This document shows, piece by piece, positions 24,404 to 51,614 of a stretch of DNA of 64,000 bases. Below the pieces are notes generated by a model. The model was given only the letters and a program-made list of their open reading frames with translations, was not told where the DNA came from and ran no database searches. Source of the stretch: a virus (lineage: Duplodnaviria > Caudoviricetes); IMG/VR virus record IMGVR_UViG_3300022660_000043, one strand, 5' to 3'. The position numbers were made by a program, and so were the translations under genes. The number at the start of each line of letters is the position of its first letter. Positions within the stretch are counted from its first letter, which is position 1.

Positions 24404-24488
24404 TAAAAAGGGAGCACAGCCCAACGACCAACTGTGCTCCAAAAAGAAAGGAGGTGAAAAATGTATGCAAGAACTACAACGCCCGCAC
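24404..24488 (-). ncRNA. candidate small RNA carrying the anti-SD sequence UCACCUCCUUUCU
   Basis: Class-2 promoter 24489-24501, no ORF, terminator GGAGCACAG/CTGTGCTCC-CTTTTT. Confidence 0.65.
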
Positions 24489-24527
24489 ATTATATTATAC
24501 AATGTCGAAAACCAAAATTTAACTATT

Positions 24528-25262
24528 TTAGAAAGTTTCTTCTGAAACTCCAGTAAACTGTTTCTGCTGAGTTCCGATTCTAGTGCCGACCCCGGAAGCC
24601 GGATAGGTAGGTCGGTTCTTCGGAAGCACCCAACTTACGTTAGTGTATCCACTCGCTGCTGCCTGACGAATTATAGCAACCTGAGTTGCCGGATCTTGAG
24701 TAAACTCTGTGAGAGTATCATGGAAGATCTGAATAACTCCCTTAGTCAGATTACCCTTCTTACCTTCGATAATAGCTTCGACCCAGAGCTTATAAGCTTC
24801 TTGTACTTCCGAGGTATGACTCAAGGTAGCAGTAAACCCGGTGAATGTCGCAATCTTACCCTGTCGTTTGGCGGCAGCTACATCAGTAGTCTTGGTCTTA
24901 GCTTTCTTCTGCAACTTCTCCAGAACCTTAACATCATCGTCGAGAAGATATTCCGCCATCTGCTGGACGTTGATTCCAATCTCATTAGGATTCTCAGGGT
25001 TAACCTGAAGAACTCCGATCCGAATTAATGCCTGATCCAAAGCGAGTTGCTGTTCTACCGGAATTCCGCATTCCTTTTCTACATACTCTCGCTTGAGAGG
25101 GAAGTAACCTGTGGCCACGAGAGTATCCCACTTCTTTTCTATTACCCTAGGATAAACATCGAGTAGGACGGCAAAGTAGGTGCTGAGTTCCAGACCGAAG
25201 TAACGAACCATCTTCTTATTAACAAGGAGATAAGAGTCCTTGCTCATAATATCAATAAACAT
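24528..25262 (-). CDS. winged-helix protein, phage replication initiator/replisome organiser-like
   Basis: YLLVNKKMVRYFGLE..YFAVLL...GYF......E.ECGI....Q......L...GVL pattern; own class-2 promoter 25285-25298. Confidence 0.55.
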   Translation of the reverse strand: MFIDIMSKDSYLLVNKKMVRYFGLELSTYFAVLLDVYPRVIEKKWDTLVATGYFPLKREYVEKECGIPVEQQLALDQALIRIGVLQVNPENPNEIGINVQQMAEYLLDDDVKVLEKLQKKAKTKTTDVAAAKRQGKIATFTGFTATLSHTSEVQEAYKLWVEAIIEGKKGNLTKGVIQIFHDTLTEFTQDPATQVAIIRQAAASGYTNVSWVLPKNRPTYPASGVGTRIGTQQKQFTGVSEETF

Positions 25263-25389
25263 AAAATCCTCCAAATAAATATTCTATTTTATTATACGAT
25301 ATAAGTAACTACGAAAAAACACCCCATCCGAAAATAGGGTGTTTTGAATTTTACATATTTGAAAACCGGTGGTTTTCAAATTATATGTA

Positions 25390-26274
25390 TTAGTAGGAGA
25401 AATTACCTCGTGCATCCGCAAGAGTACGATCGAGGAAGCGATAAAGCTTCTGATTGTTGGCACTTCTGATAGCTTCGAGAGCCTTACCGAACTCTACCGG
25501 ATTGAAGTTATAGTTTTCACCGAAATACGAGGCATAATCCTGAGGAAGTTTGCTCAGAAGCTGCACGCACCGGAAAGGCCAGAACTCTTTGGATACTTGA
25601 GTGAACTTCTTGGGATTACCTTCAGGATCTCGGCCCTCAACAACCTTCTTCGAAGTCTTCATAACGTCGTTGAAGGCGATAGTGTCGAGGATGATGGCCT
25701 CAACAATCTTCTTCTTGTTGAGATAAAGCTGAACCAGAGCTCTGGCATTACCTTCCGCAGAAGACCGAGCTTGATAATCAAGGTCATCATCGTCAGCGAG
25801 AGTATCACCAAGAGTGGTCTTGCCCTCTCCGCCAAACATTTCGCTGATTTCCTCATCCATCGAGGCAGCGTAGTGATTAGCACGGCTCTTGTCGAGGTTT
25901 TCCTGATAGTTATCTCGGAGGAAGGTAGTCTTGATGCACTTCTTTACAGCCTGATCGGCATTAACACCACGAGAGGGATCCTGCCAGACCTTGTACTCAA
26001 GAGCAAGCTCAATAGCTTTCCAGCCCTTGGAGATCTTCTCGTCGTATTCTACGTTCATACCGATCTTCTCATTGATGAAGTAACTCCAGAAACGGAGCAT
26101 AAGACCGGCAGCGCAGCAATCACGAAGCTTCTCGTCTCCAGCTTCTCTTGCAGCCTCCATAGTATCGAGCATCCAAGCTGCGGTTGCAGGATCTTTGTTA
26201 GAGTACTTAACTCCATAGTCCCTCTCAAGAACCGCTGCCTGTGCCTTAAACATAGTAAAAGCGGGGTTAGTCAA
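25390..26274 (-). CDS. putative phage RNA polymerase sigma-factor-like protein
   Basis: Region-2-like helices (LMLRFWSYF, GWKAIELALE) followed by region-3-like ASMDEEI...GEGKTTLGDTL. Confidence 0.55.
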   Translation of the reverse strand: MTNPAFTMFKAQAAVLERDYGVKYSNKDPATAAWMLDTMEAAREAGDEKLRDCCAAGLMLRFWSYFINEKIGMNVEYDEKISKGWKAIELALEYKVWQDPSRGVNADQAVKKCIKTTFLRDNYQENLDKSRANHYAASMDEEISEMFGGEGKTTLGDTLADDDDLDYQARSSAEGNARALVQLYLNKKKIVEAIILDTIAFNDVMKTSKKVVEGRDPEGNPKKFTQVSKEFWPFRCVQLLSKLPQDYASYFGENYNFNPVEFGKALEAIRSANNQKLYRFLDRTLADARGNFSY

Positions 26275-26305
26275 TATGTATCACCTTGTCCTTTCTTTCA
26301 TTGTC

Positions 26306-26620
26306 TCAGTCACAGAAACTGTAACTTACCTTATCAGTAAATGCCGGGAACAGCTGCTGCTTCTTCTGTCTTGCCACTGCCTCAACCTCAAGCAAGCCCT
26401 TACGAACTTTGAGAACCTGAGCAGCGGTCAGTCTGATCATCTTCATTGCCTTACCATCTGAAGTCAGTCGCTCCCAAATGTAATAGTACTGTCTATGACC
26501 GGCGGAGGAACATCTCACTCTCTTACCTTCTACCTTCTTGAAGGCAGGTGTAACCTTTGCTACACCGACATGAGTGCAGGTCCACTTACCAGACTTCATT
26601 CCCATATACTTACTTTTCAT
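26306..26620 (-). CDS. basic hypothetical protein
   Basis: K/R-rich ORF with GAAAGGA RBS, first gene after promoter copy 9. Confidence 0.75.
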   Translation of the reverse strand: MKSKYMGMKSGKWTCTHVGVAKVTPAFKKVEGKRVRCSSAGHRQYYYIWERLTSDGKAMKMIRLTAAQVLKVRKGLLEVEAVARQKKQQLFPAFTDKVSYSFCD

Positions 26621-26648
26621 TTTTGTATGTACCAGTCCTTTCTTAATT

Positions 26649-26725
26649 GTACATAATATTATATCACGTTTTGTTATGTTTGTAAACTGACAAATCTGCC
26701 AAAATTTAGATAAATTTGTCAGTTT
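26649..26725 (-). promoter_or_regulatory. class-1 promoter repeat, copy 9, with stem-loop
   Basis: TTTACA-N17-TATAAT; inverted repeat AAACTGACAAAT/ATTTGTCAGTTT. Confidence 0.85.
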
Positions 26726-33560: not shown

Positions 33561-33574
33561 TAGCAGAACCTAAT

Positions 33575-33675
33575 AAAAAACGACGACCTGTCCAGGAGGA
33601 ATAGACAAGCCGCCGCCAAAAAGGGAGGACTGCTGCTTTCGCAGCTAACTATGAAAAACCGAGGTTTCTAACCTC
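33575..33675 (-). ncRNA. candidate structured small RNA with anti-SD/anti-AUG tracts
   Basis: Class-2 promoter 33676-33689; hairpins GAGGTT/AACCTC and CTGC-GAAA-GCAG; terminator with TTCCTCCT loop and T6. Confidence 0.6.
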
Positions 33676-33732
33676 TATTATATTATACAGTATCCAAATC
33701 GCTTTTTTATTATTTCGTCCAAAAGTTTTTTA

Positions 33733-40261: not shown

Positions 40262-41984
40262 TATATGTAAATCTCCTAAAAATAATTTTCTCTAAAAATA
40301 ATTAGCTCGCGCGTGCGCATTCAGATCTGAAGCTATATATAATAGCTTTAAGCTTAAAGCTATATATTAAAGCTTTAAAATATATACTTAAAATATTTAT
40401 ATAGAATATATATTTTGGGCTTTTGAAAATGCTTCAAAATGCTGTATAATAAAAATGTGAGTTCAGCCTACTACTCAGAAGTCTGACGACTTCTGAAAAC
40501 AGTTCATTTTCAGTTTACTTGTTTTTCAGTTGGACTTAACTTCCGGCTGGAGCCGGAAGTAATACCCTCTCCCCCAACCCCCTCTCCCTCTTACGAGGTC
40601 AAGGAAGGCAGGGAGCATAGAAAGAAATAATTGAAAATGAACAATCCAGAGAACTCGCAGTCTCTATTATATTATACAATATGCACAACCATAGATTAAC
40701 AATTTTATATAAATTATTTAATTTTATTTAATTTAATTTCCGGCCACGGAGGTCAGTAATTAAATTTTTTTATTGAGCCAAATTGTTAAAAATTTATCAG
40801 TCTTGAATAAAAGCAAGGACTCGCTCCAGAGGCCGTTTAAAGGCCCTCAGGCGAGTTTTCTTTTTTAGGCTACCAAGTATTAGCCCCTCTCGACTTCGTG
40901 CGAATTTGGCTAGAAATTTTGAGCCACACAAAGTTCTGGGCCTTAGGCTAGACCTGTCTGGCTTCCCTCCCTTTGGCCCCGGGAAATTGTAAACATTTTG
41001 TAAATTTTTGGAGAGGGCCTTAAGGGGAAGCCAGACAGGAGAGGGAGACTGGTCCTCCTAAGCCCTAGGCTGAAAACAGATTGTTTTGACTTCCGGTCGC
41101 GGGGTGAAAACATTTTCTTTTGGCTTTGGCCCTAGAATGAAAACACTTTATTTTCAGAAGCCAAAAATGAAAACGCCTTAAAATCGAAAACGATCTTTTT
41201 TCGCCGGCTATGAAAAAATGAAAATAGTCTAAAATCGAAAACATTTCTTTTTCGGTGCATGTAGAAAAAAGAGAAAAAATGAAAACTCCCCATTTTCAAA
41301 ATGATCTGTTTTCACCTTAAGCCAAAAACCAAAATATTTCTTTTTCAGCCTATATTCTAAACCCAGGTCCCTCTCCACCTCATTATTCAGTATATAAAGC
41401 CTCGGAGATGAAGCGCGAGGGCCTGAGGAGGGGCCCGAGCCTCTCTAAGCTACATATAGTAGCCATGGCTCTCTGCTTCACTGTATGCCGCGCCTTGAGG
41501 CCTCTCCTTCTGCCTTCCCCTCCCTCTCGCCCTAAAGCAAAATGAAGTTTTGAGTTCTTGAAACTGCAGAAAAGGCTTCAAATACTCGCTTTTTCCTATA
41601 GCCTAAACTAAGTTTTTTGCAGTTTTTGATTTTGAAAACTTCGTTTTAGATAAAAGAAAAGCCCCGACTATTGCCGGAGCCCTCATAAAAAGAAGAAGCC
41701 CGGGGGGAAGCCCACCTCGGACGCTGCGCCAAAAACTAACCGGCGACTTACGCCGTGCACTTCGGCCAGTTTTTTGCTGTCTTCATTTATTTTAGCTAAT
41801 ATTTTTTAATAAGTTATTAAACTATTAATTTAATAGCTGGTACCCAGAGCGGGAAGAAAGGAAAAGAGAGAATACGGCTTTGAGGATAAGGCTTTAAGGC
41901 TTTAGTTTCTGGGAAGTACTTTGTATATAAAGAAAAAGAACAATACAGGTTTTTGAGGCCGGTATTGTTCTTTATAATATTCTT
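40262..41984. other. 1.7 kb non-coding region; candidate replication origin or packaging region
   Basis: No ORFs of 60 aa or more; AT-rich palindromes, GC-rich hairpins, 17-bp palindromic repeats. Confidence 0.6.
41072..41346. repeat. array of SAAAA-N7-TTTTS palindromic sites (8 copies)
   Basis: Starts at 41072, 41106, 41139, 41186, 41237, 41281, 41297, 41330; outliers at 40495 and 34333. Confidence 0.8.
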
Positions 41985-45051: not shown

Positions 45052-48000
45052 TCAGTTTTCTCCTTCTTCTAAAATTTCATTGAGGCAAGCATTATAACCA
45101 TCTTCGAATTCCCAAGTATAATCTCGGTCATGAGGCTTTTTCTTTTCTTCTTCTATATTGTAATGCCCCGGCAAAGACTTAAGAGGACACCACTTTTGGC
45201 GAAAGGTATCTGGGTATGGGTAATCGATAGTTCTATTATTTAAACCTCTACAACACATATCATTATAGTGATTCTCAAACAGTGAGCACTCAGAGCAGGA
45301 TTTTATACTATCCAAAATTAAAACTGCTTTACTCATTTATTTTCCTCCAGCCATTTCAGCATATCTTCATAGAGCTTGCCGGTTACATCAAGTCTAGCTC
45401 CCCACCAACCAATAGAGAACCAACCACCGTCTGTAGTACGAACGAAGTAAGAAGGATCTTCTTCATCTTCAAATTCTGTTTTAATGAAGTAGTCAGTCTC
45501 CTTGTCATAAAGCCAGTAGCATTCCTCTACGTTCTTTTTCCAAGATTCAACAAGCCAAGGTTCAGCAATCTCAAAAGGAATGACCTCAAGTACTTTTGTA
45601 ATAGCATGACGACTAGGGCTGATTTTACCGTCGTCAAAGGTGTGATATTCTTTATTTGCTTCTGGTACCATCTGCTTATCATAAGGTGTAAGGTTGATTA
45701 CTGTTACAGTTCCCATTAGTTTTTCTCCTTTCTCATCTTTGCTCCGCATTCTGAGCAGTATTTACAAGTATCCCAATCCCAATGTCCACAAAGTGAACAA
45801 GTAGAGTCTCCGTCTTTTTCTGAGCACTCTGCTTTAATCCAGGTCCCGGTTCTGGAAGTAATATCAGGAACTTGTTCTCGCGGTAGCTGAGTATAAGAAA
45901 CAAGTTCATCAATAAGTTCCTTCAGGCTTTCAACTCTGTTGCATCCATCATAGTCATGTCCGATAGCCCAGATCAAATGACGACGATTATTGAGATCTGC
46001 AACCTCTTTCTTGAGCTCATCAATATCAGCTTCAACTACTGGAACCTTTTCCAAGTAATCAATCATCTGACAGATAGTATCATTATCGCTCATAGACCAG
46101 GTACGATCCTCCAGAGCTTTATCCAAAGCTTTAAGTGCGGCTTCACGTACAATATATTCTTTAGTCATAGATTACTCCTCCAACAAAGCTTTACTTTGAT
46201 CAAGTTCTTTAAGTATAAGATTAGCCTTCTTTATAGTAGACTGAAGCTGTGGAGATATATACTCTCCCGGTTCACAGGCAGCCACCAAATCTTCTGCTGA
46301 AACAGTCGCTTTTCTTAGAAGCTCTATAAGTTCAGTTAGTGTCTTATCTTCCATAGTTAGTAACCTCAGTTAAATGCTGGCTCATAGTTTCGTGGAAGTA
46401 GCTTACAAGTATATTCTACTTTTCCACACTTTTTGCAGGTTCTACTCCAACGAGCCTTTGTTTCTTCTTTCCAGCCACAGATAACAGAAAAGCAGTCTAC
46501 CCCTTGCCAGCGTTCCTCAAATTCAGGAAGTCTCTGAATCTCTGGGTCATATTTTGCTGTACTCCATTCATGAGCGCAGCCTGCTTGCTCTCTTTTAAGG
46601 TCAGCAAGCTTTGTTTCATATTCATACTTAAGTTGTTCTTCTCTAGTCATATTAAATCCTCCCGGTTACTGAGTAATACAAATATCATAGGCAGTCCAGT
46701 AGTAAGTTGCTTCACCATTTTCCCATTGTTCTTTGAGCTCATACTGAATAGAGACCTTAGGATCTCCCCAGTCTTCCATCTCAACTGTAGGTGCAAACTT
46801 TCTCCAGAGTCTGAGGACCTCTTCTTGAATCTGCTTATGTTCCTTAGAACCTTTTTTGAAGTGGTTGTCAGGATTCATGAGATGATAACGAGTTTCCTCC
46901 AATGCTTTTTCTGCATCCCAAGCTTTATTAAGAGCTTCACAATAAGCTTCAACCGAATCAAAGTTGTCTCGCTCAATTTCATAGGACTTATGTTCAGGAG
47001 TAAACATTACATTTCTCAAACCCTTGCAGAAATCTTCAAAATAGTTTGTGATATCATTGTCTCCGAAGCTCAGTCTAATAATCATTATAATTCCTCCATA
47101 AAATATTCTATAATATTATACGATATATAAAAAAGAGAAGTAAGACTTTTAATCCAACTTCTCTTTTTATTTTTAAATAAATTTATCAGCCGCAGAGTAG
47201 TCTATAGCTTTGCCGCATTCGGGGCAGGTAGTTCTGAACCAACCAACAAACTTTCCTATCTTTGGAAAGCCAATCAAGTCGCCAACTGCACGGTTACAAG
47301 GGTAAGGACACCAGACAACGCCTTTCATGGTGCCTTTTCCGTATAAAGGCTTAACTTCTCCTGTATATTTAGTTAGCTCAGAGAAATCAGTGTAGTCTTT
47401 AAACTCAAGTCTCATTTACAGGCTCAACCTCCGACTTCTTGTCAAATAGCATTACCTTATAGGTAGAGAGATCTACAGCAGCCACAAAGCTCTGGAGTTT
47501 ATCTCCGAATACAAAACATTTAGAGACTTCCATGTCTACGAGCATATAAGTGTTCTCATCATCCTTGCGCTTGAATTTCATACCCGGAATAAGATTGCCA
47601 AGAGTTCTAACTCCAGCATGCTCGGGATGAGTATTATAATACTTATTGATGCTATTAAATAGTCTTATATTTTCTCGCTCAAGAGTCTTCATAATTCGAG
47701 AGGCACCGAAGTAAGTACCTCTATAGAGAGTTCCACCTTCATGAGGCCAATCGTCTCCGATAACAAGTTCACCATTTTCGATAAAGGCATAATAACCGTA
47801 GTCTCTTCCTGCTCTGCTTCCTGCAAAAGTATGAGTAATCGACATTTTAAAATCCTCCCTAGTTTTTCATTGTATTATATTATACGACTTTTGAAAATAC
47901 AAATTAAGACTTTTGTTGAAATTTGGGACAAGTCTTTTTGCATTCCTCTGTCCACCAAGTAAAATCGAGAGCAGCTTCATTGGCTGAGTTACTCTGGTCT

Positions 48001-50846: not shown

Positions 50847-51614
50847 ATGGCAGAAAGACAGACTAATTACACAATTGGCGAGTGTGCAGAGCTTCCGTCT
50901 AAAGGGCTTATTTATGGAGCAGGAATGCCTTCTCAGGTAGAGCTTCGTTCTATGACCGCAAGAGATGAGATGAAGAGACTTGCTCCTAGTAAGTCTCAGT
51001 TTAAAACTCTTGCTGATATTATTGAGGGCTGTATGATTGAGAAGTATCCAGTGAAAGTGTATGATATGGCATTAGGCGATTATGAGTATCTTTTGCACAG
51101 ACTTCGTATTGTAACTTATGGTGATGAGTATAAGATGACTTTACGTTGCCCCTACTGTGGAGAATATATTGATGCTGTTGCACATCTTGAACAACTGAAT
51201 ATTAAGGAATTTGATATGCAAGAATTTGAAGCTGCAAGATCTTTAATTCTTCCAAGAGGTGGTCAGACGGTGACGATTAACTATCAGACACCTAGAATGC
51301 TAGATGAGAATGATATTAAAGTAAAAGATATGAAACGTAGGTTTAAAGATGCAGATGTAGACTTTAATACTCTTACTACACTAACTAGTGCTATTGACAC
51401 TGTAGATGGAATGCACTTAGATTCTGTACAGCTAGAGAACTTTGTTAATCGTCTATCTGCACTTGATATGGCTAAGATTCTAAATGCTATTGAAACTCTC
51501 AACGCTGGAATTGGCATAGATAACTCTCTGGTTGTCGATTGCGAGAAATGCGGAGGAGAGGTACCCACCTCCTTTCGCTTTGGACCAGAGTTTTTTAGAC
51601 CCACGACTATCTGA
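50847..51614 (+). CDS. T4 gp26-like baseplate hub/tail assembly chaperone
   Basis: LPSKG..Y, RSMTARDE, GD..YLL..LR..TYG, CPYCG, CEKCG, EFFRP; precedes tape measure. Confidence 0.8.
   Translation: MAERQTNYTIGECAELPSKGLIYGAGMPSQVELRSMTARDEMKRLAPSKSQFKTLADIIEGCMIEKYPVKVYDMALGDYEYLLHRLRIVTYGDEYKMTLRCPYCGEYIDAVAHLEQLNIKEFDMQEFEAARSLILPRGGQTVTINYQTPRMLDENDIKVKDMKRRFKDADVDFNTLTTLTSAIDTVDGMHLDSVQLENFVNRLSALDMAKILNAIETLNAGIGIDNSLVVDCEKCGGEVPTSFRFGPEFFRPTTI

Follow-up and report, generated by a model that had tools for sequence, protein, structure and literature searches.

The c4 RNAs of phages P1 and P7 and the sar RNA of phage P22 mask the ribosome-binding site (RBS) of a phage gene. PreS of phage lambda is a base-pairing RNA that tunes the infection programme, and VpdS of phage VP882 is cited in the same source as a phage regulatory RNA (10.1101/2024.10.31.621285). 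All four come from temperate phages of Proteobacteria and, like the RNA described here as we predict it to act, are phage-encoded, base-pairing and involved in tuning the infection programme. To our knowledge, none of them has been described as silencing a phage sigma factor or as carrying the 16S rRNA tail. The phage sRNAs described so far are mainly those of temperate phages (10.1101/2024.10.31.621285; PMC8244752), and few have even been predicted for virulent phages (PMC8244752). Our literature search, whose coverage excluded most subscription journals, returned no paper on a phage sRNA that carries an anti-Shine-Dalgarno (anti-SD) copy or represses its own sigma factor.

Two groups of bacterial sRNAs are also close. 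RsaE of S. aureus, RoxS of B. subtilis, and RsaD are C-rich anti-SD sRNAs of Bacillota that block translation initiation through an unpaired seed (PMC8334554). Like them, the RNA described here is a stand-alone RNA close to 90 nt long, and its unpaired C-rich seed is likewise predicted to bind SD sequences and block initiation (PMC8334554). It differs from them in being phage-encoded, in having a full 16S-tail seed rather than UCCC, in having no Rfam or sequence match, and in having the phage's own sigma gene as its predicted main target. OmrA/B acting on ompR and Qrr acting on luxO are Hfq-dependent sRNAs that repress their own regulators, both of them response regulators, and the predicted feedback on translation of the RNA's own activator is of this kind (PMC13501541). 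Here, by contrast, the regulator would be a sigma-like factor encoded by a large phage, in a loop that is itself inferred.

The locus lies in a window of 64,000 nucleotides, the whole stretch analysed, from the record of a large uncultured gut phage, 221 kb long with 31 tRNAs and 38% G+C. The NrdD of this phage is closest to those of Enterocloster phages (66%) and of two gut Bacillota MAGs, one from the Oscillospiraceae and one from the Erysipelotrichaceae (65%), so a Bacillota host is likely. An earlier note, made from the sequence alone, had proposed a class-2 promoter, about 85 nt without an ORF and then an intrinsic terminator. All of these parts were found at 24501-24411 on the minus strand. 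They are given here with the neighbouring features:

24489-24501, minus strand: class-2 promoter motif, with no -35 element; one of 44 coding-strand copies, and present ahead of every homolog
24405-24488, minus strand: small RNA gene of about 84 nt, with a probable start near 24488; present in all 19 syntenic loci that were informative
24458-24488, minus strand: variable 5' hairpin region, with a near-invariant GUGC at its 5' end
24441-24457, minus strand: unpaired seed, made up of the 13-nt copy of the 16S tail (24457-24445) and a U-run
24405-24440, minus strand: intrinsic terminator (24440-24411, followed by a U-run)
24528-25262, minus strand: conserved 244-aa gene that separates the sigma-like gene from the RNA; a class-2 promoter of its own lies at 25298
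25390-26274, minus strand: gene for a sigma70-like phage protein of 294 aa, the predicted main target, 1.8 kb upstream of the RNA
26275-26299, minus strand: predicted target site, a bipartite sigma RBS pairing through 11 bp, a 3-nt bulge and 5 bp (dG -19.7, rank 1 of 511)
26658-26686, minus strand: class-1 (sigmaA-type, early) promoter of the operon of the 104-aa and sigma-like genes, an 11/12 match with an extended TG
33572-33676 (up to 33689), minus strand: second class-2 anti-SD RNA (sister RNA), z -3.6

The note had also reported an exact copy of the Bacillota 16S tail, within a 23-nt stretch that maps to 24467-24445 of the minus strand. The 13-mer is indeed identical to the end of the 16S gene, as distinct from a mapped mature end, in two gut Bacillota, a Lachnospiraceae-family genome and a Solobacterium genome. 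The 221-kb genome contains it a single time, where base composition predicts 0.008 occurrences, an expectation that overstates the surprise because the complement of the 13-mer is a natural RBS. In the predicted fold the 16S-like stretch is unpaired (P(unpaired) 0.98). The fold of the whole RNA has a z of -3.2, nearly all of it due to the terminator, which is one-directional, with a U-run on the minus strand only. The 5' hairpin alone has a z of -0.7 here and is strong in L010, L012 and L018 (z to -4.7 among homologs). The note further described the stretch as complementary to an ideal RBS plus AUG. The presence of the anti-AUG CAU is explained in part by its closing of the 5' hairpin against the invariant 5' GUG, and in this genome it does not lie opposite the sigma start codon, which is TTG. 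A second anti-SD match, at 51574, was set aside, as it falls within the last part of a coding gene on the plus strand.

Searches with the Rfam 15 covariance models, which include RsaE/RoxS, C4 and sar, gave no match in the window at the gathering threshold, and relaxing the search to E 10 gave nothing relevant for the small RNA. The RNA belongs to no catalogued family, though it is RsaE/RoxS-like in its predicted action. An exact search of viral contigs with a 20-nt core found a sole match, the RBS of an unrelated gene, and GTDB genomes yielded no copy of the promoter and core together.

Conservation was assessed by synteny, using the neighbouring 244-aa gene as the anchor. This gene always follows the sigma-like gene, and by eye its product looks like a wHTH/DnaD-type replication initiator; family searches with it gave no match. 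Among its 47 homologs, 19 distinct loci had enough downstream DNA to be informative, and in all 19 the promoter, the variable hairpin, the seed and the terminator occupy the same place. The exact 13-mer is retained in 17 of the 19, L010 and L028 carrying variants, and the seed has 16 invariant columns across 15 aligned homologs. Fifteen homologous terminator stems are divergent in sequence (10-15 bp, -16 to -20 kcal/mol), and all five consensus pairs show two-sided, compensating changes. An RNA model matched a distant phage (G386; E 1e-4); model R1 captures only six promoter-region pairs and behaves mostly as a sequence profile. A blind 24-nt scan was noisy: on the coding strand, the RNA came out at rank 1 or 2 in six close loci and at rank 1 in L305, but not in the others. 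Antisense ORFs on the plus strand run from 2 to 59 aa in the homologs, lie in each of the three frames when counted from the promoter, and have no peptide in common. There is accordingly no conserved, cis-overlapped hydrophobic toxin ORF of the kind that a type I toxin-antitoxin locus would have. Since the plus-strand ORF is not conserved, the element is almost certainly an RNA gene. It has its own promoter and intrinsic terminator without a conserved ORF, and a conserved, unpaired C-rich seed complementary to the SD, as do the C-rich anti-SD sRNAs. The proposal of a trans-acting, RBS-occluding sRNA is well supported by the synteny, the invariance of the exposed core, the compensated stems and the lack of a conserved antisense ORF, and the RNA very probably acts by pairing with start regions.

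The gene upstream of the anchor encodes a protein of 294 aa for which no PDB profile match and no clear sequence-family match were found. Residues 29-126 of its AlphaFold model match sigma domain 2, and sigma factors account for nearly all of the top 30 hits of a structural search, the best being SigB (Z 8.2, rmsd 2.5, 88 residues); a Z of 8.2 for domain 2 is moderate for a helical domain. The best Foldseek match is sigmaA (E 0.09), region 4 reaches a Z of about 4.7 in the structure comparison, the comparison with the PHROG sigma gives an E of 0.02, and Pfam Sigma70_r3 is matched weakly, by 2 of 82 family members (E 0.003). The modelled structure thus has the fold of sigma70 domain 2, and the protein would be the sigma factor that reads class-2 promoters. 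Most homologs retain the hexamer TACATA ahead of the sigma start, and the RBS of the 104-aa gene upstream is similar (AAGAAAGGAC, followed by TACATA ahead of the start), at 26620-26650 on the minus strand. A mini-ORF of six codons lies over the sigma RBS in this genome (26282-26302, minus strand) and was not seen in the homologs.

The earlier note had seen no matching target in the window. No long contiguous complement was found in this genome (G000) or in a relative (G001); once bulges were allowed the sigma RBS emerged as a target, with an interrupted match at 26299-26281. When the seed was paired with all start regions, called by a simple custom caller, the sigma RBS ranked 1 of 309 genes in this genome and 2 of 203 in the relative, and with the whole RNA in place of the seed it ranked second in both. 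The bipartite pattern is unique to the sigma gene among the 309 and 203 phage genes and was found in none of 765 host-like genes. Its downstream half is a working SD, and its upstream half is not, since it lies at least 14 nt from the start codon, too far for an SD. For this genome and for L007, L296 and L297, pairing is also predicted between the 5' hairpin region and the first codons of sigma.

In seven of 15 loci the sigma gene ranks sixth or better among 511; these seven fall in three separate branches of the sigma tree, although five of them form one clade. Pairing is moderate in four loci (L006, L012, L018 and L303; ranks 30-60) and unremarkable in four others (L025, L010, L028 and L027; ranks 123-436 of 511). 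Overall, the predicted start-region pairing is strong in G386 and in 7 of the 15 loci, moderate in four and absent in four. Among 34 gene families in the 15 loci, the sigma family comes top both by binding rank and by cognate-versus-swapped pairing, with a residual of -1.9 kcal/mol (permutation p 0.003, kin not being independent), and the family of the 104-aa gene is only mid-table. The variable 5' part alone covaries with sigma only at a p of about 0.1.

Whatever pairs with the seed can equally pair with 16S rRNA. Taken by itself, the 16S tail places the sigma RBS at ranks 2-4 in six loci, and a strong SD could therefore account for part of this signal. Three results, from L006 to L020, from L303 and from G386, reach further. 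In L006, L012, L018, L020 and L303, the RNA ranks the sigma site far above the rank given by the 16S tail (e.g. 2 versus 69; 51-60 versus 268). The seed of L303, whose sigma has 44% identity, diverges from the 16S sequence and acquires an 11-bp match to the RBS of its own sigma, an extension with a chance expectation of roughly 0.1-0.2. The homolog in G386 (35% sigma identity), which the RNA model found blind, retains the promoter, hairpin and terminator and has lost the CCUCC/anti-SD. It pairs through about 20 bp over a sigma start that has no SD, ranking it 1 of 44, and the 16S tail ranks the same start 42 of 44; the G386 seed is pyrimidine-rich and ranks 19 of 511 against the genes of other phages. 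G383 has the strongest sigma RBS of its genome, yet the homolog search found no RNA there.

Two promoter classes are present in the phage. Class 1 is sigmaA-type with a long upstream box, and its 14 coding-strand copies are confined to 14.5-33.5 kb of the window. Class 2 is a -10-only motif whose coding-strand copies precede replication, packaging and tRNA genes. By these features class 1 would be early and class 2 middle/late. GGAGG is found in 71% and 69% of class-1 genes versus 33% and 31% of class-2 genes in the two genomes, and the seed binds the putative early genes better than the class-2 genes (p 1e-10 and 1e-3). With GGAGG roughly twice as frequent in early genes as in class-2 genes, anti-SD RNAs would strike early messages hardest. 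The sister RNA at 33.6 kb consists, in order, of a hairpin, an anti-start linker (CAUAGUU), a second hairpin, an anti-SD and a terminator loop with a second CCUCC. It is as well conserved as the first RNA and occurs in at least 8 relatives: L006, L007, L008, L022, L024 and L296, with a variant in L010 and G384. Most of its best partners are early genes, none of which stands out as the target. Longer class-2 RNAs of 170-250 nt with two anti-SD motifs each were noted at L303:11838-12066, L305:16330-16640 and G385:C1:6045-6215, and RNAs of 73-86 nt with the anti-SD in the linker and the terminator loop were noted in more distant phages (L338:2909, L346:2574, L347:2892 and L335:4126). The distant sister RNAs are mostly without a preference for sigma, only that of L335 fitting its sigma start well (rank 4 of 34). 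Elsewhere in the window, 40262-41984 is a region of about 1.7 kb without long ORFs, in which a class-2 promoter at 40678 leads into a G-rich structured stretch; it is possibly an origin or a further RNA. The window and the genome copy differ by one base at 45285.

On the host side, perfect 13-nt sites followed by a start codon are present in 33 of 201 Lachnospiraceae-family genomes. Among 29 such loci are about nine mobile-element sigma70-region-4 proteins, four Flp-pilin-like proteins and three small hydrophobic peptides. Sites of this type precede mobile-element sigma70-region-4 proteins in, among others, L268, L278 and L293, and in L267, L290 and L280 they precede hydrophobic peptides of 28-37 aa that look by eye like type I toxins; the L267 peptide has no Pfam match. 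The full 16-nt complement was found in 1 of 302 Lachnospiraceae-family and Oscillospirales-order genomes, in no conserved host gene.

These data bear on several readings of the RNA. Feedback on sigma as its main role stands at an even chance. Alternatively, the RNA and its sister at 33.6 kb could mask many GGAGG-type RBSs in a broad early shut-off with sigma as just one target. The better binding of early genes agrees with this, as do the distant class-2 RNAs with two CCUCC and mostly no preference for sigma, and the full anti-SD kept in L006, L012 and L018 despite a sigma RBS that uses only its 3' half. We nevertheless regard it as unlikely, as it leaves unexplained both the unique bipartite sigma site and a G386 homolog that tracks sigma without CCUCC. 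The earlier note suggested silencing of host (e.g. defence) or phage mRNAs; a phage mRNA, that of sigma, is the top conserved partner, and host or defence genes are not the best-supported target. A role in masking mRNAs with a strong SD, whether of the host, of its prophages or of conjugative elements and possibly including type I toxins, is similarly improbable, but it stays alive, as a rival or as a side effect, because of the perfect 13-nt sites on mobile-element sigma-like, pilin-like and hydrophobic-peptide genes. Host-like starts also bind the seed at -14 kcal/mol or better more often than phage starts (20% and 14% versus 6%), a comparison confounded by G+C (48-61% versus 38%). Moreover, genes with a perfect SD match any 16S copy by definition, and the full 16 nt have no conserved host site.

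That the displayed rRNA end is a decoy that sequesters a nuclease, toxin or ribosomal protein of the host would account for the exact, unpaired copy of 13-14 nt kept in 17 of 19 close homologs. We think this very unlikely, since L010, L028, L303 and G386 depart from 16S, the last having lost the copy while keeping the promoter, hairpin and terminator, and since the copy is internal rather than a free 3' end. Most improbable of all is a peptide gene on the plus strand, with the minus-strand signals incidental or an antitoxin RNA. Nearly all homologs do have a perfect RBS there, with an ATG or GTG 4-11 nt away, and the earlier note had named a translated plus-strand ORF as the result that would count against an RNA. 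However, the variable antisense ORFs make such a gene unlikely, the terminator U-run is oriented to the minus strand, and no convincing plus-strand promoter was found.

Returning to sigma feedback, the early operon with the sigma-like gene would, judging by its promoter, be transcribed by host sigmaA. The phage sigma would then turn on class-2 promoters, one of which makes the RNA, and the unpaired seed would bind the RBS of the sigma mRNA as in the computed pairing. Translation of sigma would thereby be blocked, so that negative feedback would set in at the switch from early to middle/late expression, once the job of sigma is done; expression of the RNA, its timing and the repression are parts of the loop that we infer. 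The resemblance to the 16S tail would arise because the seed must cover an SD, and not from rRNA mimicry directed at a protein. As the seed is a generic anti-SD, the RNA would probably also damp other GGAGG-rich early mRNAs, and we rate this combined reading, a trans-acting antisense RNA in negative feedback on the phage sigma with such wider damping, as evenly balanced. Somewhat more tentatively, the switch may be made of RNA only: sigma would induce a set of anti-SD RNAs, one member of which would co-evolve with the sigma mRNA and silence it, and the set would lower GGAGG-type early messages, and strong-SD messages of the host and mobile elements, while middle/late genes with weaker SDs stay translated.

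What is known of how large lytic-type phages shut down early expression concerns mainly proteins, and a target has been named for very few of their small RNAs. With the mRNA of the phage sigma, an uncatalogued RNA family gains a specific predicted partner, together with natural compensatory variants that can serve as controls. The genome-wide difference between early and later RBSs fits translational switching, and a portable anti-SD RNA of 84 nt could act as a translation repressor in gut Bacillota.
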